From an uncultured Bacilli bacterium (lineage in GTDB: Bacteria > Bacillota_I > Bacilli_A > RF39 > UBA660): DNA of 64,000 bases. This document shows, piece after piece, positions 4,556 to 40,693 of the stretch. A model generated the notes under the pieces. It was not told the origin of the DNA. It ran no database searches and saw only the letters and a program-made list of their open reading frames with translations. Location of the stretch: assembly GCA_934149245.1 (NCBI GenBank), contig CAKPER010000002.1, positions 4,879 through 68,878 of the forward strand. Reading direction: 5' to 3'. A program made the translations under genes and the position numbers. The first letter of the stretch is position 1. Each line of letters opens with the position of its first letter.

Positions 4556-5596
4556 GTGGGGAAGAAGAAAATGAACTTAGTTAAAACTAAGAAAAAATCA
4601 AAATACAAATTAAAATATATAATATGTTTAGTAATTATTTACTTGTCTTTTTCTTATACTTTTTATAATATGATAAAAGGAAGTAAAGCAGTATCTAATG
4701 AGGAATTTATAAATATTTTAGTATCTAGTGGTAATGCTAATATATTATCTAAATATAAAACAACTAATATTATAAATGGTACTATGAAATTTCTTCTTAA
4801 TATAGATTTTACTAATCCTAAAAGCATTTTAAATAATAGTATTTTAAAATATGGTAGCACTAAAAAGGAGAAAACGGAAGCTACGATATCTATCTCTTAT
4901 AATGATGATTACAGTGATATGGATGAGTTAAAGAAAGTTAGTGATTATATAAAGGATCCTAATCCTAAAGAAATAAAAAAACCTCTTGTTTATTTATATA
5001 ATACTCATCAATTAGAAAATTATAATAATGATAATTTAGAAATATATGGTATAACTCCTAATGTTCAAATGGCTAGCTATTTATTACGAGAAAAACTTGA
5101 TAGTATGGGGATTTCTACAATAGTTGAAGATGCTAATATGAGTAATATTTTAGCAAGTAATAATTGGAATTATGCTTATTCTTATCAAGCTAGTGCTAGC
5201 TTAATAACAGATAAAAAAAATAAATATCCAACTTTAAAATATTTTATTGATATTCATCGAGATAGCATTCCCAAATCTGCATCAACTGCTTCCTTAAATA
5301 ATAAAAACTATGCTAAAATACTATTCGTTGTTGGAAAAGACTATAACACTTGGCAAGATAATTATAATTTTTCAAATAAATTAAATGATTTACTTAATAC
5401 TTACTATTCAGGAATATCCAGAGGAATTATTACCAAATCAGGAACAGGTGTTAATGGCATATATAACCAAAACCTAAGTCCTAATTGCATTTTAATAGAA
5501 GTAGGAGGAAATGAAAATACTATTGAAGAAGTTTATAATACTATAGAAGTTTTAGCAGATATTTTAAATAAGTATATATCAGGAGCAGCTAAATGA
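4556..5596 (+). CDS. spoIIP: Stage II sporulation protein P (SpoIIP family amidase/peptidase)
   Basis: N-terminal TM helix, then LYNTHQLENY, FIDIHRDS and ILIEVGGNENT motifs characteristic of SpoIIP. Confidence 0.8.
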   Translation: MGKKKMNLVKTKKKSKYKLKYIICLVIIYLSFSYTFYNMIKGSKAVSNEEFINILVSSGNANILSKYKTTNIINGTMKFLLNIDFTNPKSILNNSILKYGSTKKEKTEATISISYNDDYSDMDELKKVSDYIKDPNPKEIKKPLVYLYNTHQLENYNNDNLEIYGITPNVQMASYLLREKLDSMGISTIVEDANMSNILASNNWNYAYSYQASASLITDKKNKYPTLKYFIDIHRDSIPKSASTASLNNKNYAKILFVVGKDYNTWQDNYNFSNKLNDLLNTYYSGISRGIITKSGTGVNGIYNQNLSPNCILIEVGGNENTIEEVYNTIEVLADILNKYISGAAK

Positions 5597-19554: not shown

Positions 19555-19656
19555 CTAATCATAATTATACTTACTAATATTTAAAAGAATACTCATTGAT
19601 AACATAGTTATTAGAAGACTACTTCCTCCATAAGACAGAAACGGAAGAGTAACACC
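19555..19656 (-). pseudogene. 3' segment (33 codons plus stop) of a split SEDS (SpoVE/FtsW/RodA-family) gene
   Basis: Minus-strand translation GVTLPFLSYGGSSLLITMLSMSILLNISKYNYD*. This is the universally conserved SEDS C-terminal motif that is missing from the 22596-23588 ORF. There is no start codon or RBS of its own. Confidence 0.8.
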
Positions 19657-19699
19657 CTAAGTATTGCAAATACAACTTATTTTATGTAGGAAACATTTA

Positions 19700-19743
19700 C
19701 AAAATAACTGAAAAATGATAGTAATATTTCAAAATAACTGAAA
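19700..19743. repeat. Two direct copies of CAAAATAACTGAAA spaced 30 bp apart at the left end of the element
   Basis: Exact 14-mers at 19700-19713 and 19730-19743, between the junction and the recombinase stop codon. Confidence 0.7.
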
Positions 19744-19745
19744 TA

Positions 19746-21323
19746 TTATAGTTCTTCTAATAGCTCTGGAAATTTTAAATAAACATACACTTTTTTATCT
19801 TTGTCAATTTCAATCCTATCTACAAGCCTTTTTATTTGATCTTTAGTAGGATTCTTTAAAGACATATAATCTAATACAGAATTTTTACATCCACTAAATT
19901 TAGAATTATTTGTAGTTTGTTTTTCATTAACTTCTTTTTTCTTATTTAATTCTTCTAATTTCATATTAATTCTAGTTATTTCTTTATTTGTTTTGTCGTA
20001 AATTCTTTTATACATTTCTTTATCGACTAAGCCTTTAATCTTGTCCATATATAGATTATCTATGGTAGTATATTTCGAATTTAATAGATTATTTAATCTT
20101 TCAATTTTTTTATTTATTTCTTTTATATTTTTAATAACAATATTTTCTTCAGTTTCTTCTATTCCGTTAAAATCATAATATTTGCAAAATCTTTCACAGA
20201 TATTCTGTAGATATTCTATAATATCTTCTTCAAGCCAATCATAATTTATTCTGTGTGAGGAACAAATTCCATATTTTCCTTTTCTAGTATATAAATTACA
20301 TTGAGTATAATGCCTTACACCAGATTTTAAAACATCTTCACTTATTCTTATATTGCGTCCACACTCATGACAATAAAGCATACCACCTAATAAATAATCT
20401 AACTGACGATCTGTAACCCAAGTTGTTGATTTACTATCTAATATTTCTTGAACCTTATCAAATGTATCTTTTGATATTATTCCCTCATGAGTTCCTTTAA
20501 CAATAATTATTTCGTCTTGTGATGTTTTCCTTAGTTTTTTTGAATTATAACTAATTTTATTATGAGTATTTTGTACCATATTTCCTATATACATTTGGCT
20601 TGTTAATATTCCTTTAACTGTTTGCCTTTTCCATATACCAAAGCCATCATTTTCGTGTATCTTTTTTCCTCTAGGCTCGCCCTTATGAACAATAGGTATA
20701 GGTATCTTTTTTAAAGTTAAGTATTCTGCTATTTTATTTGGACTTTTTCCATCTAAAGCCAAGTCATAAATTAACTCAATAATATGTCTTACTTCTTCAT
20801 CAACAATTAATTTATGTCTATCATTTGGATCTTTCTTATATCCATATAAAGGGAATGAGCCAATATAATCACCTTTATTTTGTTTAGCCCTTAATGAACT
20901 TTTAACTTTCTTAGAAACATCTCTTAAATATAAATCGTTAACACTTAATCTAATTCCAAGCATTGAGTCCCCAATATTAGAATCATAGGAATCATTAATT
21001 GCAATATATCTAACACCACGCTCTAAAAAGTATTCTTCTATATATTTACCAGTTTTATACATTTCACGACCAAGTCTTGATAAATCTTTTGTAATAACAC
21101 AATTAATTTTACATGCTTCAATATCTTCAATCATTTCTTGAAAAGCTGGTCTATCAAAGTTACCACCAGAATAACCATCATCAACATAATGCTTATATAT
21201 TTTTAGGTTATTAAATTTTGCAAAAGAATCAATTATGATTTTTTGACTTTGAATAGATGATGATTCATCAATTTTATTGTCGGCATCAGATAATCTATCA
21301 TAAGCACCACAAATATATTCCAT
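19746..21323 (-). CDS. Large serine recombinase
   Basis: Resolvase domain with catalytic Ser in AYDRLSD, then DDGYSGGNFDRPAFQ and DLSRLGR. Followed by a recombinase domain, a Cys-rich zinc ribbon (CHECGRN..C..C) and a C-terminal coiled coil. AAGGAG RBS. Confidence 0.9.
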   Translation of the reverse strand: MEYICGAYDRLSDADNKIDESSSIQSQKIIIDSFAKFNNLKIYKHYVDDGYSGGNFDRPAFQEMIEDIEACKINCVITKDLSRLGREMYKTGKYIEEYFLERGVRYIAINDSYDSNIGDSMLGIRLSVNDLYLRDVSKKVKSSLRAKQNKGDYIGSFPLYGYKKDPNDRHKLIVDEEVRHIIELIYDLALDGKSPNKIAEYLTLKKIPIPIVHKGEPRGKKIHENDGFGIWKRQTVKGILTSQMYIGNMVQNTHNKISYNSKKLRKTSQDEIIIVKGTHEGIISKDTFDKVQEILDSKSTTWVTDRQLDYLLGGMLYCHECGRNIRISEDVLKSGVRHYTQCNLYTRKGKYGICSSHRINYDWLEEDIIEYLQNICERFCKYYDFNGIEETEENIVIKNIKEINKKIERLNNLLNSKYTTIDNLYMDKIKGLVDKEMYKRIYDKTNKEITRINMKLEELNKKKEVNEKQTTNNSKFSGCKNSVLDYMSLKNPTKDQIKRLVDRIEIDKDKKVYVYLKFPELLEEL

Positions 21324-21459
21324 TAATAAAATTGCTCCTTATTAAGTAAATTTATAATATTATTATTTTTATATTGCATAATAAATAAATTTAATTTTAA
21401 CTTAGATAGTACCAATATTTTATGCTTTTTTATTATCATTGATTTATTAAAGAAATAGG

Positions 21460-21594
21460 CTACTTTACTTTTAAATTTTTTAAATAACACAAATATCCCT
21501 CCTTTAGTATTTCTTCAAGTTTTGTACCATTCTTTTTATAAATAAAAGTTATATTTAATTTTCTTTTGACTCCATTTTTATCTATTCGCTTCAT
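21460..21594 (-). CDS. 44-codon ORF of unknown function inside the element
   Basis: MKRIDKNGVKRKLNITFIYKKNGTKLEEILKEGYLCYLKNLKVK. Weak AGAAAGG RBS. Lies between the TA terminator and the recombinase gene. Confidence 0.25.
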   Translation of the reverse strand: MKRIDKNGVKRKLNITFIYKKNGTKLEEILKEGYLCYLKNLKVK

Positions 21595-21623
21595 AAGTAT
21601 TTACCTTTCTTTAAAATATATTG

Positions 21624-21662
21624 TAAAAAAAGAAAATAATGTCTATAACATTCCGACATTAT
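21624..21662 (-). terminator. Terminator of the TA operon
   Basis: AATAATGTC / GACATTATT 9-bp stem. On the minus strand it is followed by a T-run. Confidence 0.55.
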
Positions 21663-21693
21663 TATTTTCGTATACATTATTTAAAGATAATAT

Positions 21694-22005
21694 TTAATTT
21701 AAAATACTATTAATATCCATTTTCTGATATAAAACTCTTACAATAGTAATTATTTTATCATTTTCATTTATAGTATAAAACATAAGAAAATTTTTAACTT
21801 TAATACTTCTATAACTGTTCTCTAAATTTGAAGTTGTTATATATTCAGAAAAGCTATAAGGAAAACTTAAAATATTATTTGCACTTTCTATGAAACACTT
21901 AGCTAAATTAATTGCAGCAGTGGTATTTTGTAAGGTATTAGAGATATAATATATAATATCATCTATATCTTTTTTGGCAATTGGTAAAAATTCTAATTTA
22001 TACAT
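21694..22005 (-). CDS. Type II toxin, ParE/RelE superfamily
   Basis: 103 aa. Profile-like pattern YKLEF.P.A.KDIDDII.YI......A...........L..FP......YR...VKNFLMFY.I.E....I.IVRVLY. Starts 1 nt after the antitoxin stop. Confidence 0.8.
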   Translation of the reverse strand: MYKLEFLPIAKKDIDDIIYYISNTLQNTTAAINLAKCFIESANNILSFPYSFSEYITTSNLENSYRSIKVKNFLMFYTINENDKIITIVRVLYQKMDINSILN

Positions 22006-22006
22006 A

Positions 22007-22288
22007 CTACCCTTTATTAATAATATTATTCATACTATTTTCTATATCATTTATGGTATATCTTTTAGAAGTACTATTTATTTCTGCTTCAGCTTCTTTC
22101 AATTTTTCATAAATCATTTCATCAGCTGTACTAGCTTTTACTTCAAATGGTATTTTTTGTTCTCTCAAAACAGCTTTTATAAACATATTCACAGCTGTTG
22201 AAACATTCATTCCAACATTATTACAAAACTTTTCAAAATTCTTTTTATCATTTGCATCTATTCTGACATTTAAAGTTAATGATTCCAT
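22007..22288 (-). CDS. Type II antitoxin, RelB/DinJ family
   Basis: AGAGGG RBS before ATG 22288. LTLNVRIDANDKKNFEKFCNNVGMNVSTAVNMFIKAVLREQKIPFEV is a typical ribbon-helix-helix DinJ/RelB fold sequence. Confidence 0.75.
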   Translation of the reverse strand: MESLTLNVRIDANDKKNFEKFCNNVGMNVSTAVNMFIKAVLREQKIPFEVKASTADEMIYEKLKEAEAEINSTSKRYTINDIENSMNNIINKG

Positions 22289-22539
22289 ATTATCCCTCTT
22301 TTCTAAACTAAGTATATAATTGTTGTGTGTATTTGTCAATACAATGTGTATATATATTAATACAAAGTATTTTTGTATACGATTATTACTAAAAATATAT
22401 TAAAGCTATAATAGTAGAATAAATTTTTTCAGTAATGGGAAAATTACCCCTTATTTTTATCTGCAAAATTTTGTGTTTATCTGTATTTTTTTAATATTTT
22501 ATCATTCTTATTATTTTTATTTTTTTATCAAATCTTTAA

Positions 22540-22561
22540 AAGCCTTTGAAAATAAAGGCTT
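22540..22561. terminator. Hairpin at the right end of the element
   Basis: AAGCCTTT-GAAAAT-AAAGGCTT 8-bp stem with T-rich flanks on both strands. It sits ~35 nt downstream (minus strand) of the premature stop of the SEDS 5' segment. Confidence 0.5.
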
Positions 22562-22595
22562 ATTTTGACTGTAGTTATCAGTTATATAGTAGGAC

Positions 22596-23588
22596 TTACC
22601 CTGTTACAGGAATTAATCCTACAACCACCATTAAATTAAGTAAAGTTTGAAATGCTAATCCAAAAGTAATTCCAAAAGCCAAATATTTTCCAAATTTATT
22701 TTCACAATGTTTACTTATTCTAAAACCTCTATAAATAATAATTATAAATAAAGAAGCTACTATTAAAATACCTAAAAAACCAAATTCTTCACTAATTATA
22801 GAAAAGATAAAATCGGTCTGTGGCTCTGGTAGATAAAAATGTTTTTGAATACTATTTTTAAAACCAACTCCCATTAAACCAGCTGGTCCTATTGCATACA
22901 GGCTCTGAATTATTTGAAAACCACTACCAAGTGGATCGGTCCAGGGATTTAAAAAAGATACTATTCTTTTTAATCTATAAGGTGCCACTATTATCAACAA
23001 AACTATACCAACTAAACCAAGTAATCCCATTTTTATAAAAAATGACATATTAACACCACTTATAAATAATAATCCTACTATAGTTACAACAATTATTACT
23101 CCCGTTCCGAAATCAGGTTGTAACATAATAAGAGCAAATACTAGCATTAAAACTATTAAAATAGGTAATACTCCTGTTTTAACATTTTTTAATATTTTTT
23201 CATTTTGCGTTAAATATTTTGATGTAAAAATAATCATTCCTAGTTTTGTAAACTCACTAGGTTGAATACCAAATCCGCCTATTCCAAACCAACTTCTAGA
23301 ACCATTTCTTACAGAACCAATTCCTGGAATTAAAACTAATACTAATAATAAAATACAACTAAAAAATATTAAATTGGCTCTATTTAAATATTTAGTATAA
23401 GGAACTTTTAACATCATATACATAATAATATAACCAATTACTAAAAATATACTCTGGGTAATAACAAATTTATAAGGATTATTAAATTTGTATTCAGCCC
23501 AAACATAAGATGATGAATATATCATAGTAACACCAAATAGTGATATAATTATAATAGCAAATAAAAGAATTAAATCTATATTTTTCAT
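22596..23588 (-). pseudogene. 5' segment (330 codons) of the split SEDS (SpoVE/FtsW/RodA-family) gene
   Basis: GGAGG RBS. Multi-TM translation with SEDS motifs (GSVRNGSRSWF..GIQPSEFTKL..QPDFGT..PEPQTDFIFS). It ends ..LIPVTG and then hits an element-encoded TAA, lacking the xxLPFxSYGGSS C-terminus. Confidence 0.85.
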
Positions 23589-23794
23589 GCTACCTCCTAA
23601 AGTAATGCTAACTTTCTTAATAAATATATCTTAAATCTATTAATTTAACATTAGTTTTCTTCTCATAATCTTCTATAAAATATTATTTATAAATGATATT
23701 AAATATGCTATTTGTCTGTAAAGTTAGTTTTAGATTATTGTAAATTATGATTGAATGTGTTATATATAAAATGTATTTTTTAGGAGGTGATTTA

Positions 23795-25579
23795 ATGAGA
23801 GAATATCTTTTAAGTATCAAAAGTGAAATAGAAAGAGTTGAAGTAATAAAAAAAATAGACAGTGATAAAGAAAAATCTAGGTGTTTAGAATTAATTTCTT
23901 CTCCTAAATTAAAAGCTGATATTATCAAAAGTTTTATAAGTGATGAAGAAAAGTGTAAGTATTTGGAAATATTATCTGATGACTATATTAGGGCTACTAT
24001 TATTACAAGTTTTCATGATGATAATCTTAAAGCAAATTTTATAAGAGTTTTAAAAGATGATTTATCTAAAATTAATATTATTAGAAGTATTAAAGATAAG
24101 CAACTTAGAATAAATTGTTTAGTAAATATTAAAAATATCAAGTATATAAGAAATATAATAGATCATGCTGAATATTTAGATACAATTATTATTCCAAATA
24201 AATTAATTGAAAAATATGCTAATTATTATAAAGTCAAGTTGTCTAGACTTAATAGTTTTATCTCTAAATTTGGCTACAAAATACTATGGATGATAGATAA
24301 CGACAACATCAAAGATGCTCTAAGGCTAAACAAGACAGATTTTTATAAATATATGGAACTATTTAAAGAAATAAATCTATTTTTAAATAATAATGATATT
24401 AATAATGCTACTAATTCAATACTTCAAAGAGAATTTAGATTAAAAAGACATGATATTTATTCAGTATATGGTATCCTAGAAGCAGCAATATCAACCAAAA
24501 ATAAAGATAATATTATAAAAATAATTAATGAAATAAGTAATTATGTTGATATAGATTTATTTATAAAGCCTCTAGGTTTATCAAGACAAGACTTTTTAAA
24601 TAGTATTTTAGAAGGAAAAAATAAAAATATTTTACATGATATTACTAATAAATATATAATGTTAAAGAGAAATGAATATGTAAGAGAAAGACAAAAACAT
24701 TTAAAAAAAGAGCTAAATCTTACTCAAAAATATGATAAAAAATTTATAACCAATAAAGTTATTACAACTACATCTACTAATGATATTCTAACTCTTATAT
24801 CCAAGTGTAATAAAAATAGATTATCAAGTCAAGCTCTAGAGCTTATAAAGAATGAGAAAGTTTTAAGCGAAATAATTAACTTTAAAAAAGATCCTAGCAG
24901 GTGTCAAAATAAAAAGGCTATCTTTCCTTATTTAAAAATCTTTAATGAAATTCTAACTAATTTATATGATATGGATCTTCTAAAAACTTCTGTTAAAGAT
25001 GAAGAGTGCAAATATGTCTATATTATAGATAATGTTAGTGCTGATACTTTAGTTAGTGTTACTAGTTTTTTTAATGTTGAAAAAATGATAGAGAATATTT
25101 TTAATAACTCTGCTTTGTATAATCAGTTGCTCCAGGATTTAGATAAATATAAGTTTATAGGAAGTCTAGATATATACACTAATATAGTAAAAAATGCTGA
25201 TTTAGATTATAGTAGTAGTACTGTTGCTAGTTTTATTAGTAATTATGATAGAATAACAAAGTATATTAAGGATTATAATATAATTCCATCATTCACAACT
25301 CTTATGGAGGTTGCTGGTGTTTATGATAGTAGCTCTTATAAATATGAAATATTATTTGGTAGGGAAAATAGCAAACTATTAGTCCATAATCTACCAGCTA
25401 ATAGTGCTTCTATGTCTAAAAATCTCAGACTAGAAAATGCTATTTATTATATTAATATTATGTATAAAAGAAAGTACATAACTGTACCACCAATTGATGA
25501 AGATATATCTATAAATGGTAAAAACATAAATATTAATTTAGGAAATTTTACTGATATGATTAATTTAACTTATGGCTAA
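23795..25579 (+). CDS. Unknown protein, N-terminal part: ~26-aa helical repeats followed by a large uncharacterised region
   Basis: AGGAGG RBS before ATG 23795. Repeats of the type xIIKSFISDEEKCKYLEILSDDYIRA occur 4 times. Terminated by a single TAA that is in frame with the next ORF. Confidence 0.6.
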   Translation: MREYLLSIKSEIERVEVIKKIDSDKEKSRCLELISSPKLKADIIKSFISDEEKCKYLEILSDDYIRATIITSFHDDNLKANFIRVLKDDLSKINIIRSIKDKQLRINCLVNIKNIKYIRNIIDHAEYLDTIIIPNKLIEKYANYYKVKLSRLNSFISKFGYKILWMIDNDNIKDALRLNKTDFYKYMELFKEINLFLNNNDINNATNSILQREFRLKRHDIYSVYGILEAAISTKNKDNIIKIINEISNYVDIDLFIKPLGLSRQDFLNSILEGKNKNILHDITNKYIMLKRNEYVRERQKHLKKELNLTQKYDKKFITNKVITTTSTNDILTLISKCNKNRLSSQALELIKNEKVLSEIINFKKDPSRCQNKKAIFPYLKIFNEILTNLYDMDLLKTSVKDEECKYVYIIDNVSADTLVSVTSFFNVEKMIENIFNNSALYNQLLQDLDKYKFIGSLDIYTNIVKNADLDYSSSTVASFISNYDRITKYIKDYNIIPSFTTLMEVAGVYDSSSYKYEILFGRENSKLLVHNLPANSASMSKNLRLENAIYYINIMYKRKYITVPPIDEDISINGKNININLGNFTDMINLTYG

Positions 25580-25594
25580 AGAACAGGCTCTTGT

Positions 25595-26341
25595 ATGAGA
25601 ATAGGGGGAACAGGGGCAACTTTGTTTGATTTTTGTCTGAAAAATGATAATGGTTTTCATATTTGTTTGCGTGATAAAAATAGTATGAACTTTATTAGTC
25701 GAGTAAGTGGATTCAGAAATGGTAACACGGTCTTTTTAAATCAACTTAGAAATAGTGTTCTAGCAACTTATGATGATTATGATATAGTTAGTGCCATTAA
25801 AGTAGTTGCAGATATGTTAATTGAAAGAACTAAAGATAGTAAGTTTCCTATTGCTAATGTTATTATATCATCTGATTTTGCTATGAATAAATATGTAGAC
25901 TTAATAGAAAATTTAGAAATTAATGATAGTAGAGATGGTTATGATTATTTTTATGCTGATGTAGAAAATAGTGGTATTGTATTAGCAAGTAGTAATAATA
26001 AAAAGTTAGTTCCAATAGAATTAGGAACTAATAATTGTTCTAAATATTTAGTTAATCGAAAGAAGGTTCATGAATATGATGCTGGTGTTCAAGATGATTT
26101 TTCTGATAAAATAGCAAGTATTCAAATTATTGATCAAGTATTAGAAGATATTCCTTTTGAAGATTGTGATTATATTGTTCCAAATGGAATTGTTAAATGT
26201 TATATAGGTGAGGATTGGTATTTAACTAAAGATATAGATGGTAACATTCAGAAATATATTATGTCTAATTCTAATAATAAGGAATTAGCTCTAGAAGAAA
26301 TTAATAATATATTAGCTAAAAACAAGATAAGAAAAAGGTAA
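25595..26341 (+). CDS. Unknown protein, C-terminal part (same frame as 23795-25579)
   Basis: No RBS precedes ATG 25595. The frame is open from 25580 (RTGSCMRIGGTGATLFDF..). It is separated from the upstream ORF by only one stop codon. Confidence 0.5.
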   Translation: MRIGGTGATLFDFCLKNDNGFHICLRDKNSMNFISRVSGFRNGNTVFLNQLRNSVLATYDDYDIVSAIKVVADMLIERTKDSKFPIANVIISSDFAMNKYVDLIENLEINDSRDGYDYFYADVENSGIVLASSNNKKLVPIELGTNNCSKYLVNRKKVHEYDAGVQDDFSDKIASIQIIDQVLEDIPFEDCDYIVPNGIVKCYIGEDWYLTKDIDGNIQKYIMSNSNNKELALEEINNILAKNKIRKR

Positions 26342-29359: not shown

Positions 29360-29530
29360 AATAATCCACCTTACTTTAAATATATTATGCCATAAAATTA
29401 TCTAAAATAAAAGCTCTATTTAAAATATATAAATCATTAATTATATTTTAGATTTTTATCTCTAGATTAAATTATTGATATATGGACTAAATTTCATTAT
29501 CTTTTCATATTATTTTTATAGGTGAATTGT

Positions 29531-30616
29531 ATGAAGAAAATATTAGTAAGTATAATGTTATTTTTTATCTTTATATCAAGTGCTAATGCAAGTGTGAGTA
29601 GTGCTAGTGAATATATTTTGTTAGAGCAGAAAACAGGTAGGATTTTAGAAGGCAAGAACTATAATACACCCTTATTAATTGCCTCTATTACCAAAATAAT
29701 GACAGCTGTAATAGCAATAGAATCTGGAAAATTAGATAAAGAACTTACTGTTGATGATACTATCTTAAAGGCATATGGCTCAGGTGTTTATATCGAAATT
29801 GGTGAAAAAATGACTTTAAGGGACTTATTATATGGCTTAATGTTAAGAAGTGGAAATGATGCAGCATTAATGATTGCTAAATATACATCTGGTAGCGTTT
29901 CTAAATTTGTTGAGCAAATGAATAAAAAGGCCAATGAATTAGGGATGATTAATACCAAATTTGTCAATCCTAGTGGCTTAGATAATGAAGATGGTGGCAA
30001 CTATTCAACTGCATATGACATGGCCATATTAACAAGATATGCTATGGCAAATAAAGATTATCGTGAAATTACAAAAACTAAAAGCTACAAATTACAAACC
30101 AATAAAAAGACTTATATTTGGAAAAATAAAAATAAATTATTAAATTATGATTACATAACTGGTGGTAAGACAGGATATACAGATAAAGCAAGAAGAACAT
30201 TAGTCTCAACTGCTAGTAAAAACAATATTGATTTGATAGTTGTAACTCTAAAAGATAGTGATGATTGGAATACACATAAATCATTGTATGAAAAAGCCTA
30301 TAGTGAATATAAATTATATAAATTTCAAGATAAAAATAAGTTAAATATCAAAGATAAAAATAAGTATAAAGGTAAATTGTATCTAAAAAAAGATGTGGTA
30401 ATACCAGTAAAAGAAGCTGAACTTAATAATATGAGTTCTAAAATAAAATTATTATCAACTTCTAAAAAAAAGAATAATTCTAAAGTAGGGGAGTATCAAA
30501 TATATTTAGATAAAGTTATGATTTATAAAGAAGATATTTATTTAAAAAGAAAGACTAAGAGTAATTCTAAGAAAAAGAGTTATCTTTTTGATAAGATTAA
30601 GGAGAATTTTACATGA
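29531..30616 (+). CDS. dacB: D-alanyl-D-alanine carboxypeptidase (sporulation-type PBP5*)
   Basis: AGGTGA RBS before ATG 29531. Signal peptide, then SITK (SxxK), SGND (SxN) and KTGYT (KTG). Followed by spmA-spmB as in Bacillus. Confidence 0.8.
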   Translation: MKKILVSIMLFFIFISSANASVSSASEYILLEQKTGRILEGKNYNTPLLIASITKIMTAVIAIESGKLDKELTVDDTILKAYGSGVYIEIGEKMTLRDLLYGLMLRSGNDAALMIAKYTSGSVSKFVEQMNKKANELGMINTKFVNPSGLDNEDGGNYSTAYDMAILTRYAMANKDYREITKTKSYKLQTNKKTYIWKNKNKLLNYDYITGGKTGYTDKARRTLVSTASKNNIDLIVVTLKDSDDWNTHKSLYEKAYSEYKLYKFQDKNKLNIKDKNKYKGKLYLKKDVVIPVKEAELNNMSSKIKLLSTSKKKNNSKVGEYQIYLDKVMIYKEDIYLKRKTKSNSKKKSYLFDKIKENFT

Positions 30617-31203
30617 TTAATTATATCTTTGGTATCTTTATTATAATTGGTATAGTTTATAGCTTTTTTACAGGTAATGTTGATGTTTTAAATAATAGTT
30701 TAATATCCTCTGGAGAAGATGCTATTAGTATGATTTTTAAAATGATTCCTTTATTATGCTTATGGTTGGGCGTTATGAAAATAGCAGAAGCCTCTAATTT
30801 AGTTGATAAAATATCAGGCTTTCTTTCTAAAATAATTCATCCATTATTTCCAGAACTTAAAAAAAATACTTCTTCAATAAGTTATATAGCTACTAATATT
30901 GCGATGAATATGCTAGGATTAGGTAGTGGAGCAACTCCTTTTGGATTAAAAGCTATGGAAAGTATGCAACAAGAAAATGATAAAAAAGATACTGCTAGTA
31001 GAAGTATGATAACTTTTCTTGTTATAAATACAGCATCTGTTACTATAATTCCGACAACAGTAATTAGTATGCGTATCCTAGCCGGTTCAACAAGTCCTAC
31101 AATAATAGTACCAGCAAGCATTATAACAACTATCTTATCTTGTTTTTTAGCTCTAATTTTTGATAGAATATTTTATCATATTTGGAGTGGTAAGTATGGC
31201 TAA
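30613..31203 (+). CDS. spmA: Spore maturation protein A
   Basis: Nucleoside-recognition/Gate-type membrane protein overlapping the dacB stop. Conserved dacB-spmA-spmB order. Confidence 0.75.
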   Translation: MINYIFGIFIIIGIVYSFFTGNVDVLNNSLISSGEDAISMIFKMIPLLCLWLGVMKIAEASNLVDKISGFLSKIIHPLFPELKKNTSSISYIATNIAMNMLGLGSGATPFGLKAMESMQQENDKKDTASRSMITFLVINTASVTIIPTTVISMRILAGSTSPTIIVPASIITTILSCFLALIFDRIFYHIWSGKYG

Positions 31204-31699
31204 TATTATTATACCCCTAATAGTACTTACTATAATCTTTTATGGTGTTATTAAAAATGTCTCTATCTATGACAAATTTTTAGAAGGTGTTAAAGAAGGT
31301 TTATCATTAGCTTTCAATATTTTTCCAACTATGTTTGCTATGACAATATGTATAAATGTAATTTTAAAAAGCAATATTATTAATGATTTATCTAGGTTAA
31401 TATCGCCTTATTTGTTTGGGTATCCTAAAGAATTAATTCCTTTAGCTATAATGCGTCCGTTATCAGGTTCATCTTCTTTAATTATCTTGGATAATATCTT
31501 AAAAACTAAAGGGCCAGATAGTTTTATTGGTAATGTTGCTTCAGTTCTTCAAGGAAGTACAGATACTACTATTTATATAATTAGTCTATACTTTTCAGCG
31601 GTTGGTATCAAAAAAATTAAATATTCTCTAATAGTGGGTTTACTAGCAGATTTTATGGCTATAATTATTTCTTTTGTTGTAGTAAAAATACTATTATAA
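31196..31699 (+). CDS. spmB: Spore maturation protein B
   Basis: GGAGTGG RBS before ATG 31196, overlapping the spmA stop. Membrane protein, second half of the Gate-domain pair. Confidence 0.75.
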   Translation: MANIIIPLIVLTIIFYGVIKNVSIYDKFLEGVKEGLSLAFNIFPTMFAMTICINVILKSNIINDLSRLISPYLFGYPKELIPLAIMRPLSGSSSLIILDNILKTKGPDSFIGNVASVLQGSTDTTIYIISLYFSAVGIKKIKYSLIVGLLADFMAIIISFVVVKILL

Positions 31700-35628: not shown

Positions 35629-36777
35629 TTAATTAGTAAATCTTAAGCTTTCATTTGAAATATTAAATATCATTCCAACTAGTAACATGTATGATAATAA
35701 AGAAGAACCACCATAACTAATAAAGGGAAGTGTAATACCCATTATAGGTAGAACTCCGATTGTCATTGAAATATTTTGAATCTGTTGAAATAATAATACA
35801 GCAATAATTCCACCAATAGTATACTTATCTGTAATATCTGTAGTTTTTGATACCATATGTATAAGTGTTATATCAAAAAACATAATAAGTAATATAAGTA
35901 ATGAAGCACCAATTAAACCAAAATTAGAAGCAAATACACTAAAAATAAAATCGGTTTGCATTTCAGGAAAATATATAGGAGTTTTTCCATGACCTAAAAT
36001 TCCAGCAGAACCAATAGCCGTAAGAGAATTAGTTAACTGCATACCACTACTACTAGACCAATTAACAATTCTATCAATACGATAAAGCAAACTAGTTCCG
36101 AAGATATCAATAAATAAATCACTATTAATAAAATATAATATTCCACAGCAACTAATAATAGAACCTAATATTACTAAAACAAATAAAAACCAACGTTTTC
36201 TAATTCCACCAACGAATAACATTACAAAGGTAATAATAAAGTAAATCATTACTGCTCCAGTATCTGGTTCAATAAATGTTAAAACTGATGGAATAGCAAC
36301 TATAGCAAATACTTTTAATAAAAATTTAAATTCGTCACTAACAGATGGATTTGAGTATTGGTCATTGAAATCTCTAATTAACCTAGATAAGATAATAATC
36401 AAAAAAACTTTCATAAATTCACTAGGTTGTATACTACCAATATATTTTATTTGAAACCAGCATTTAGCACTGTTAACTTCCTTACCAATAAATAGAACCA
36501 GCAATAAGGAAATAACTCCCACTATATAAAACCACCAGGCATTATTGTATAAAAATTTATTTCCTAAAAACATCATAAAATAGGCAAGTCCAAAACCAAT
36601 AACATACCAAACAATTTGCTTCATCCAGTAATTTTGAAAATCTACTCCCATAAGACTTCTTGTGCAATATATAGAGACTACGGATACTATACTAAATAGT
36701 ATAAGAGGAATTAATACAGAATTTTCAACCTTAAACTTGGATACATTTTTAATAATATCACCACTTTCTATATGCAT
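35629..36777 (-). CDS. Intact SEDS family peptidoglycan polymerase (RodA/FtsW-type)
   Basis: 382 aa, 10-TM pattern. QPSEFMK, EPDTG, PEMQTDFIFS, and C-terminal GITLPFISYGGSSLLS. Confidence 0.8.
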   Translation of the reverse strand: MHIESGDIIKNVSKFKVENSVLIPLILFSIVSVVSIYCTRSLMGVDFQNYWMKQIVWYVIGFGLAYFMMFLGNKFLYNNAWWFYIVGVISLLLVLFIGKEVNSAKCWFQIKYIGSIQPSEFMKVFLIIILSRLIRDFNDQYSNPSVSDEFKFLLKVFAIVAIPSVLTFIEPDTGAVMIYFIITFVMLFVGGIRKRWFLFVLVILGSIISCCGILYFINSDLFIDIFGTSLLYRIDRIVNWSSSSGMQLTNSLTAIGSAGILGHGKTPIYFPEMQTDFIFSVFASNFGLIGASLLILLIMFFDITLIHMVSKTTDITDKYTIGGIIAVLLFQQIQNISMTIGVLPIMGITLPFISYGGSSLLSYMLLVGMIFNISNESLRFTN

Positions 36778-39484: not shown

Positions 39485-40693
39485 TTTTACAAAAATATAG
39501 TATAATTAAATCAAGATAAAAGTGAGTTGATTTAATTATGAATTTATTTGAAAAATTTGAAGTTTTAGAAGATCCTAGAGATATAAGAGGAAAAAAATAT
39601 AAATTAATAGATATATTAATTATGACAATATATGGCTTATTATGTGGTTTAAAAGACTTTACGAATATCGCAGATTTTATGAAACTAAAAGAAGATTATT
39701 TCACTAAATTATTAAATTTAGAAAACGGTACGCCGTCACATGATTGTCTTTCTGATGTCTTTGCAGCTATTGATTCAAAAAAATTTATGGAAATATTTAT
39801 TGAATGGACAAAAGAAATAGTAAAAAACAAAACTGGAAAGAATATTAGTATTGATGGAAAAGCTATCAAAAGTGCTACTGATAAAATAAATAATGGTAGT
39901 ATTCCCTATATTGTATCAGCATTTATTGGAGAAATAGGACTATCAATTGGGCAAGTGAAAGTAGATGATAAATCAAATGAAATAGTAGCAATACCAAACT
40001 TGCTTGATTTGTTGGAAATCGAAGGTGCAACAATTACAATAGATGCAATTGGAACCCAAGAAGAAATAATCAATAAAATTGTAAATAAAAAAGGTCATTA
40101 TGTATTACCAGTTAAAGATAATCAGAAAGAGTTAAAAAAGCAAATAAAATCTCAGTTTGATGGTTATAACAATTTATATGGAAATAAAGATATTTTAAAT
40201 AAAAAAACATTAGAAAAAGATCATGGTCGAATAGAAGAAAGAGAATATTTTTTATGTTATGATGTATCAAAAATAAAAGATAAAATCAAGTGGAAAACAG
40301 TTAAAGCAATTGCCTATACAAAAGTATCTAGAATTTCTGATGATGAAACTATTGTAACAGAAAATTATTACATAATAGATTATCAAATTAGTATAGAAAA
40401 ATTGATAGAAACGATAAGGGATCATTGGAATATAGAATGTGGATTACATTGGAAATTAGATGTTATTTTAGACGAAGATCATTCTAGAAATAGAATTGAA
40501 AATTCAATAAGTAATTTATCAATAATGCGTAAGATAATATTTAATTTAGCAAGTTTGGATAATTCTTTTGGCAAAGTACCATTACAAAGAAAATTAACTA
40601 GGTATATGTTAGATTTTAAAAACATAGAAAAACTGATATTTGAAATAATTCCAAGTATCAGTTAACTTTAGTTATTTTTAAGCGATTGCCATA
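39465..40693 (+). mobile_element. ISAs1-family insertion sequence, 1229 bp, apparently intact
   Basis: Perfect 20-bp terminal inverted repeats, 9-bp direct target duplication, single full-length transposase ORF. Confidence 0.85.
39538..40665 (+). CDS. ISAs1 family (H-repeat-associated) DDE transposase
   Basis: N-terminal DPRDIRGKKYKLIDILIMTIYGLLCG, then DGKAIKSA, TIDAIGTQ, and C-terminal HWNIECGLHWKLDVILDEDHSR. All are typical of ISAs1 transposases. Confidence 0.85.
   Translation: MNLFEKFEVLEDPRDIRGKKYKLIDILIMTIYGLLCGLKDFTNIADFMKLKEDYFTKLLNLENGTPSHDCLSDVFAAIDSKKFMEIFIEWTKEIVKNKTGKNISIDGKAIKSATDKINNGSIPYIVSAFIGEIGLSIGQVKVDDKSNEIVAIPNLLDLLEIEGATITIDAIGTQEEIINKIVNKKGHYVLPVKDNQKELKKQIKSQFDGYNNLYGNKDILNKKTLEKDHGRIEEREYFLCYDVSKIKDKIKWKTVKAIAYTKVSRISDDETIVTENYYIIDYQISIEKLIETIRDHWNIECGLHWKLDVILDEDHSRNRIENSISNLSIMRKIIFNLASLDNSFGKVPLQRKLTRYMLDFKNIEKLIFEIIPSIS

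Follow-up and report, generated by a model that had tools for sequence, protein, structure and literature searches.

A sporulation gene of the SEDS family, probably spoVE, is split in an uncultured Bacilli bacterium by a 2,945-bp element that carries a large serine recombinase (LSR), and the two halves of the gene can be rejoined in frame at a single, base-exact position. The locus lies within a stretch of 64,000 nucleotides of contig CAKPER010000002.1 (hereafter, the window, to which all positions refer), which is strongly AT-rich (G+C ~24-25%). We propose that the insert is a spoVE-intervening LSR element that is excised when the cell sporulates, and we give this reading a probability of roughly 0.55.

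On the minus strand, an open reading frame of 330 codons (22596-23588) encodes a SEDS protein whose C-terminal end, ..GLIPVTG, is followed by TAA. The rest of the protein, GVTLPFLSYGGSSLL..NYD*, is found at 19654-19555 on the same strand, where the tail begins with GVTLPFLSYGGSS. When the GG at 22600-22601 is joined in silico onto the base that follows the GG at 19655-19656, a SEDS protein of 362 aa is obtained, and this protein covers model positions 5-354 of the 356 in Pfam FTSW_RODA_SPOVE, that is, from end to end. A join across the full AGGGT core shared by both sites was rejected as it is out of frame; the GG register alone works. The element cuts the gene after residue 330, thereby severing the last 32 residues (the LPFLSYGGS signature among them), and it contributes the premature TAA (22596-22598). 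The 5' part of the gene thus occupies 22600-23588 (codons 1-330, with the crossover inside Gly330), and the 3' part occupies 19555-19654 (the last base of codon 330, followed by VTLPFLSYGGSSLLITMLSMSILLNISKYNYD and a stop codon), both on the minus strand. A first-pass annotation made from the letters alone had proposed a SEDS gene split by a 2.95-kb insert and a GG join that restores a 362-aa frame. Both claims hold: the insert spans 19655-22599, and the join is found, ready made, in uninterrupted relatives.

Eight contigs of the same species (L001-L008), which share the gene order of the window and have flanks ~99% identical to it (99.0-99.3% in the comparison with L001), harbor an empty site. 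The predicted 81-nt attB is present in 8/8 of them at 81/81 nt, and they encode an intact 362-aa protein (P0001) that is 99% identical to the window protein, 5' part included. Because these eight sites hold the predicted attB without mismatch, the GG join is the natural register of the gene, and the earlier expectation that uninterrupted relatives would match the predicted junction was confirmed in all eight. Furthermore, the split is not an assembly artefact, as 15 contigs or more, drawn from independent samples, carry the identical 330-aa allele followed by the same element.

The insertion point is the GG on which a natural palindrome, TGTAACA-GG-TGTTAC, is centred; this palindrome arises from conserved codons for Pro-Val-Thr-Gly-Val-Thr in the spoVE-type SEDS gene. 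The attB is GTnACnGGnGTnAC in every orthologue, and all junctions fall in the same codons. The dyad symmetry that had been taken as the mark of a serine-recombinase site was therefore borne out. In the window, the attL junction (22575-22625, minus strand) reads ..AATTCCTGTAACA-GG-GTAAGTCCTACTATATAAC.., from gene arm into element arm, with its boundary set by the empty sites, and the attR junction (19630-19680, minus strand) reads ..TTTGCAATACTTAG-GG-TGTTACTCTTCCG.., from element arm into gene arm. The junction that excision would leave in the gene is ..AATTCCTGTAACAGGTGTTACTCTTCCG.. (attB), and that predicted for the circular form is ..CAATACTTAGGGGTAAGTCCTAC.. (attP).

When the window protein was compared with NCBIfam models, spoVE ranked first (417.1 bits), followed by ftsW (394.5 bits) and rodA (310 bits). 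SpoVE is also the top-scoring model for the orthologues in L101 and L102. The former (68% identical; OW818670.1, a 1.49-Mb contig) scores 457.1 bits, above the SpoVE cutoff of 448.8, and the latter scores 424.1, below it. The gene order in L102 and L106 (81-83% identical) and in L101 is class B penicillin-binding protein (PBP), mraY, SEDS; the class B PBPs of L102 (701 bits) and L101 (729 bits) lie above the SpoVD equivalog cutoff of 688. In Erysipelatoclostridium sp. AM42-17, a cultured isolate (L020) whose split site is on NZ_QUIN01000005, the genes run mraY, murD, a response-regulator gene, SEDS 5' part, a GGDEF gene, LSR, SEDS 3' part, murG, murB and divIB, and in L014 murG and ftsQ are found downstream of the SEDS tail. 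In spore-forming Firmicutes, SEDS genes encoded in the dcw cluster are spoVE and sporulation-specific (Shrestha et al., PMC10693644). On the basis of model ranking and orthologue neighbors, we assign the split gene as a spoVE orthologue, not rodA, with moderate to high confidence, in agreement with the earlier reading of it as spoVE-type.

An alternative is that the element interrupts a redundant FtsW of the division type, whose loss would be neutral and unrelated to sporulation. The window protein does pass the FtsW cutoff (TIGR02614, 394.5 vs. 337.5) and misses that of SpoVE (TIGR02615, 417 vs. 448.8), and in the window species the gene stands alone, outside any dcw cluster. However, passing the FtsW cutoff does not separate FtsW from SpoVE, as SpoVE is a sub-family of TIGR02614, and SpoVE outscores FtsW for the window protein and its orthologues alike. 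In addition, the orthologues adjoin the SpoVD equivalog and mraY, the partner gene spoVD is also split in relatives, and the sporulation-specific role of dcw-encoded SEDS proteins in spore-formers points in the same direction. The neutral loss of a division gene is thus very improbable.

By its gene content, the host is an endospore-former, as had been supposed, because the SpoIIP encoded at 4556-5596 scores 168 bits, above the cutoff of 123. At 29522-31699, a Peptidase_S11 gene and, behind it, a pair of Gate-domain genes can be read as a dacB-spmA-spmB-like operon, and relatives encode small acid-soluble spore proteins, GerQ and SpoIVA. The second SEDS gene of the window (35629-36777), described as intact in the first-pass annotation, is indeed intact; it is RodA-like, and its DNA does not contain the target palindrome.

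All the genes of the element lie on the minus strand, like the gene it interrupts. A copy 100% identical is found in L188, and copies 95-99.9% identical are found in L009 and L189-L192. Within its left end, 35 nt past the premature stop, there is a hairpin with a 9-bp stem (22540-22561), as previously noticed. A sigma-70-like promoter, TTGACA-17-TATACT (22311-22339; a consensus match only), precedes a toxin-antitoxin operon. A possible operator is a 21-nt direct repeat (22324-22344 and 22345-22365) whose first copy overlaps this promoter. The antitoxin, a RelB/DinJ-family protein of 93 aa (22007-22288), scores 62.9 bits with TIGR02384 (cutoff 45.65) and 41.6 bits with PF04221; its start is more likely the ATG at 22288 than the TTG at 22339. 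The toxin, a ParE/RelE-family protein of 103 aa (21694-22005), scores 50.1 bits with PF05016 and 30.2 bits with TIGR02385 (cutoff 27.9). The two genes lie one base apart, and each product scores above its family cutoff, as befits a type II RelB/ParE pair.

Downstream of the toxin gene, an inverted repeat followed by a T-run (21618-21680, minus strand) is found directly upstream of a 44-codon gene, orf44 (21460-21594); this arrangement is family-wide, whatever cargo precedes it. The orf44 gene lies directly upstream of the LSR gene and matches no Pfam or NCBIfam family, but has 35 database homologues. Genes of this type (39-59 codons, with the shared motif ..L-x-[DE]-I-L-x-E-x-Y..) precede LSR genes down to ~55% LSR identity. 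Given its co-inheritance with the LSR and the purifying selection described below, we infer that orf44 is a candidate recombination directionality factor. An AlphaFold2 model of the family yielded one helix with a pLDDT of 67, too weak for fold comparison. A 55-codon open reading frame (21323-21490) was discarded as a gene since it overlaps orf44 and is conserved only in close relatives.

The LSR itself (525 aa; 19746-21323) harbors a YDRLS catalytic motif with Ser12, and contains the domains PF00239 (Resolvase), PF07508 (Recombinase) and PF13408 (Zn_ribbon_recom), all above gathering scores. R10, S12 and the cysteines of the zinc ribbon do not vary among 19 homologues. A distance of 90 nt separates the LSR stop from attR, and between them are two 26-nt direct repeats (19697-19752, minus strand), the same as those visible in L094. 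Domain matches thus support the earlier description of the insert as a serine-recombinase element that carries an LSR, a 44-codon gene and a ParE/RelB pair. Among the genes of the window element there is no replication, mobilisation, conjugation, resistance or phage gene, nor an oriT. The best explanation is that it is a non-replicative integrative element, inserted by serine-recombinase crossover at the GG.

Homologues of the LSR with 52-94% identity are numerous in gut metagenomes, and related LSRs (38-94% identical) occupy the same spoVE site in elements that range from 2.9 kb to more than 10 kb. In a sister strain (L009-L011), the same 2.9-kb element is found at the same site. In L018, both gene halves surround a 10.2-kb element whose LSR is 54% identical and whose cargo includes a LysR regulator, a kinase, a U32 peptidase, methyltransferases and a radical-SAM enzyme. 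In L020, both halves surround a 3.6-kb element with an LSR 38% identical and a GGDEF protein as cargo. The window element is therefore one small member of a family with elements above 10 kb at the same site.

In five further loci (L012/L100, L014, L015, L094 and L095), the SEDS tail alone is visible, directly after an LSR gene. One of them, L014:1-6562, shows at the spoVE site an LSR 83% identical at the right end of the element, with a DNA methylase, a DUF7659 protein and a type IV coupling protein encoded upstream. The possibility that the tail-only loci L012, L014, L015, L094 and L095 are stranded relics was set aside, given the 10.2-kb span of L018 and the context of L014. More likely, they are larger elements with the left end beyond view, one of them endowed with conjugation-type genes.

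Substitution patterns were examined in the element genes and in the gene they interrupt, using the ratio of nonsynonymous to synonymous substitution rates (dN/dS) between the window and L009 unless a range is given. The LSR gene shows a dN/dS of 0.17 with dS 0.19 (range over comparisons, 0.11-0.17) and orf44 a dN/dS of 0.22 with dS 0.13 (range, 0.08-0.24). The values are 0.03 for ParE (dS 0.14) and 0.08 for RelB (dS 0.11). Hence, all four element genes are under purifying selection. The SEDS 5' half, compared between two occupied strains, has a dN/dS of 0.04 (dS 0.033), and neither gene half shows damage in the window, L009, L018 or L020, which represent four lineages.

The 90% protein cluster that contains the SEDS protein has 42 members, and allele frequencies were counted in the 15 members listed. 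About 123 contigs carry a 362-aa form and about 53 carry one of six distinct 330-aa sequences, so that the split allele makes up ~30% of the contigs counted. One occupied lineage (window, L188, L189, L192 and L193) recurs across several independent human samples. Metagenomes with an occupied site include ERZ27287133, ERZ28613964 and ERZ4561093. The split allele is therefore frequent and transmitted between hosts, which lends indirect support to developmental excision. Element copies diverge 3-6 times more than host flanks (window vs. L009), and the elements found on one and the same host allele are 96-100% identical. In a tree of the flanks, the occupied alleles L191 and L009 stand apart from the main occupied group, and occupied and empty alleles are partly interleaved. 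The variety of elements on one host allele and the scattered positions on the flank tree indicate repeated acquisition and, as a consequence, an LSR that is competent for integration.

Repeated acquisition has a less flattering side, as it is also what one would expect of a selfish insertion of the TnpX/TndX kind. In such a scenario the element would lack developmental control and would have inactivated a gene not required for growth in the gut; strains with the insertion would be asporogenous or poor sporulators, and the element would persist thanks to its toxin-antitoxin pair and to horizontal transfer. The polymorphism of the element (~70% of counted contigs are empty), the presence of copies 3-6 times more diverged than their flanks in several host backgrounds, the type IV coupling protein of the same-site relative L014, the fact that TnpX is the best solved-structure match of the LSR, a nonsense allele of the LSR gene in L189 and the failure to find a sporulation promoter in the upstream regions scanned are all in line with this scenario. 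On the other hand, a mere knockout does not easily account for the absence of secondary damage to the gene halves in four lineages and a dN/dS of 0.04 in the SEDS 5' half, nor for a split allele that reaches ~30% of counted contigs and recurs in unrelated human samples. Furthermore, three LSR clades specialised on spoVE, spoVD and spoIVA would be hard to sustain if spore transmission had ended, and the small partner gene is conserved beside the LSR. We therefore consider selfish insertion unlikely, if far from negligible.

The interleaving of occupied and empty alleles on the flank tree admits yet another explanation, namely that the element acts as a stochastic, reversible switch. Low-frequency excision and re-integration in growing cells would then generate sporulation-competent and sporulation-incompetent subpopulations, in a manner reminiscent of the yin element of C. 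botulinum, whose integrated and circular forms are detected at all time points (PMC10747680). A contig of 3,088 nt (L011) that spans attL-attR with 75-85 nt of gene on each side would fit a sample in which both states coexist. However, co-occurring strains account equally well for such assembly breaks, and a search of JGI metagenomes for the attP junction detected chance matches only. The 2.9-kb circle, moreover, has no replication gene, and its loss from dividing cells should be lethal to them because of the ParE toxin. Altogether, a switch of this kind seems quite improbable.

Excision during sporulation, the reading that we favor, would proceed as follows. The peptidoglycan polymerase encoded by spoVE makes the spore cortex, and the split gene would remain silent during growth, when it is not needed. 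At sporulation, the LSR would recombine attL with attR, probably with the 44-aa protein as directionality factor, and excision would rebuild spoVE in the mother cell, which is terminal. The forespore chromosome would retain the element and thus ensure its inheritance, and the toxin-antitoxin pair would penalise loss of the element from dividing cells. The locus presents the traits of a skin-like element: a sporulation gene is interrupted, the host is an endospore-former, the recombinase gene lies beside an att site, and a precise join restores the frame. Indirect support for developmental excision is provided by the undamaged gene halves, the selection on the LSR and orf44, the frequency of the allele and the similar behavior of sister clades.

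A number of observations weigh against this proposal. The nearest characterised relatives of the LSR are the TnpX/TndX transposon recombinases, which are not known to need a directionality factor or to be under developmental control when they excise. Some 70% of the contigs counted are devoid of the element. In L189:6766-8343, the LSR gene carries a single-base nonsense mutation (Tyr46 to stop, Y46*), which could reflect either a locked-in element or a sequencing error. In L101:6996-11745, an intact spoVE gene of 368 codons is followed by a 423-codon gene, a 39-codon gene, an LSR gene and a second spoVE tail, 78% identical in DNA; insertion does not, therefore, always split the gene, and the L101 arrangement is either an element-borne replacement tail or a duplication that restored the gene. 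The window protein lies 32 bits short of the SpoVE cutoff and above the FtsW cutoff, so that its automatic name is FtsW, and the dcw SEDS genes of Erysipelotrichia have been described as showing a 'mixed pattern' (PMC10693644). The 18-mer of the circular attP junction, ATACTTAGGGGTAAGTCC, had 4 matches in JGI metagenomes, none of them element-like; these are chance matches, and the search is uninformative. Lastly, the regions that precede the SEDS gene, orf44 and the LSR gene yielded no conserved sigma-E or sigma-K promoter.

The latter observation deserves some detail. A scan with regular expressions for sigma-E and sigma-K promoters, carried out upstream of the SEDS gene in 9 loci, detected no such motif near the SEDS start codon. 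The sigma-E-like motif at 23600-23629 that had been pointed out as a weak hint is present in the window, but is not conserved beyond this species. In L094 and L095, the loop that precedes orf44 contains an exact CATACAAT, which was rejected as a promoter since other members of the family do not conserve it. The early comparison with skin-like intervening elements stands as far as the architecture, the exact join and the spoVE type of the gene are concerned, and excision during sporulation is its predicted part.

Known skin elements span 2.6-48 kb and contain 2-67 genes (10.1101/2022.02.25.481979). The published targets of such elements that our literature search found are sigK, spsM, spoVFB, spoVR, gerE and yabG (PMC4191935, PMC5595907, PMC10747680), as well as cotJC and spoIIID (10.1101/2022.02.25.481979). 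In the literature that we searched in full text, no report was found of spoVE, spoVD or spoIVA with an intervening element, a prophage or an attB, in line with the remark that spoVE is not among the classic targets. The companion remark that an element of ~3 kb would be unusually minimal was incorrect, as skin elements of 2.6 kb with 2 genes have been published (10.1101/2022.02.25.481979); small size is not a novelty of the window element.

As in skin, an LSR element splits a mother-cell sporulation gene, and the recombinase gene lies at the element's edge, directly upstream of the 3' fragment; in the skin family, cargo and size vary with the host, the recombinase is the sole shared gene, and the smallest elements have about 2 genes (10.1101/2022.02.25.481979). 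Unlike skin, the target is spoVE rather than sigK, the cargo is RelB/ParE, and excision is a prediction. The likeness between the window LSR and the skin recombinase is one of layout, not of direct comparison with SpoIVCA, and no named NCBIfam recombinase family reaches its cutoff with the window LSR. The gin element found in gerE of Bacillus cereus (GirC, GirX; PMC5595907) provides a parallel for a non-phage element in which an LSR and a small directionality factor (a candidate in our case) rebuild a sporulation gene. However, gin is 28.6 kb long and has three recombinase genes, and both its expression in sporulation and its recombination in vitro have been demonstrated (PMC5595907), two properties that we can only infer for the window element.

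A symmetric LSR site within a sporulation gene that is rebuilt upon excision is also found in the case of SPbeta (SprA/SprB, in spsM; PMC4191935, PMC5499854) and yin (in yabG; PMC10747680). These are prophages or prophage-like elements, whereas the window element has no phage genes and SprA is a distant match (E = 1e-11). A prophage origin is not supported: the LSRs in IMG/VR viral contigs are at most 42% identical, and none lies beside a SEDS tail. Annotated phage and plasmid collections contain no LSR match above 40% identity, and the best named match is TndX.

Affinity to transposon recombinases is, in contrast, evident. The catalytic domain of TnpX matches the LSR with E = 1e-26 and is its best solved-structure match, and TndX, ~37% identical, is its best named match. 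Tn4451 and Tn5397 resemble the window element in that they are small, non-phage elements of Firmicutes moved by an LSR via a circular intermediate. These transposons carry resistance genes together with mobilisation or conjugation genes, use a GA core and have several targets. The window element, instead, has a GG core, one conserved target site and a conserved small partner gene, and it does not belong to the Tn4451/Tn5397 type, as it has no mob, oriT, conjugation or resistance genes. A more distant analogy is provided by the fdxN element of cyanobacterial heterocysts, where an LSR (XisF) removes an element from a gene needed solely in a terminally differentiated cell. Phylum and developmental program are different, however, and the NCBIfam match of the window LSR to XisF (92 bits) is well below the cutoff of 375.

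Two other genes of mother-cell morphogenesis are split by LSRs of sister clades. Six contigs (L022, L048, L051, L052, L053 and L055), whose metagenome-assembled genomes are labelled Bacilli, Tenericutes or Mycoplasma, encode LSRs that share 36-40% identity with that of the window and adjoin the 3' part of spoIVA on its upstream side. The spoIVA 5' part is visible in L048 (element of ~3.3 kb) and L053 (~10 kb), and the halves of L048, once joined, encode a full-length SpoIVA (TIGR02836, 688 bits vs. a cutoff of 460). The spoVD gene, which encodes the class B PBP upstream of mraY-SEDS, is split in two related species (L103:196-2749 and L107:4967-7982) by elements with LSRs of 572 and 576 aa; the split codons differ (~350 and ~294), and in L107 a 47-codon gene precedes the LSR gene and the cargo includes type I restriction and SHOCT genes. 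In a tree of LSRs, the enzymes that target spoVE, spoIVA and spoVD form separate clades. A tentative extension, which we deem more doubtful than excision itself, is that, among the uncultured gut Bacilli of this clade, spoIVA and the two members of the cortex synthase pair, spoVD and spoVE, all of them core morphogenetic genes, recurrently serve as clade-specific landing sites of LSR elements, which together would exert a heritable control over whether and when a lineage sporulates. The 2.9-kb element would be the minimal unit of such control: a recombinase, a directionality factor and an addiction module that makes excision tolerable only in the terminal mother cell.

Additional loci with LSRs of the same superfamily were also observed. 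In L019:11583-12490, the LSR gene adjoins an open frame with repeated peptidoglycan-binding domains, and in L032 and L044 a collagen-like stretch of GPV repeats is found downstream of the LSR gene. L019, L032 and L044 may thereby add to the set of split genes.

A spoVE-intervening LSR element with toxin-antitoxin cargo would join a known class of elements through a plausible mechanism, with spoVE as a new target relative to the literature searched. The short list of sporulation genes split by recombinases is thereby enlarged with spoVE and, by way of side observations, with spoVD and spoIVA. The split reaches a high allele frequency in uncultured spore-formers of the human gut, where spores govern transmission from host to host. 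Annotation pipelines will call such genes truncated ftsW or pseudogenes, a source of possible errors when the capacity to sporulate is predicted. With four genes and base-exact attB and attP, the element is small enough for complete testing, and a relative that has an insertion of this kind, Erysipelatoclostridium sp. AM42-17, is in culture. LSRs and their attB/attP pairs may also serve as compact integration tools.

Two minor observations concern the neighborhood. A divergent gene next to the SEDS 5' part (23747-26341) gave no family match. Other strains encode it as a protein of 848 aa; in the window and in L188, a GAA-to-TAA nonsense codon (25577-25579) divides it into open reading frames of 610 and 248 aa. 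Farther away, an ISAs1-family transposase gene (39538-40665; 325 bits) is flanked by genes for a glycolipid glycosyltransferase and an alpha-glucosidase-like protein.

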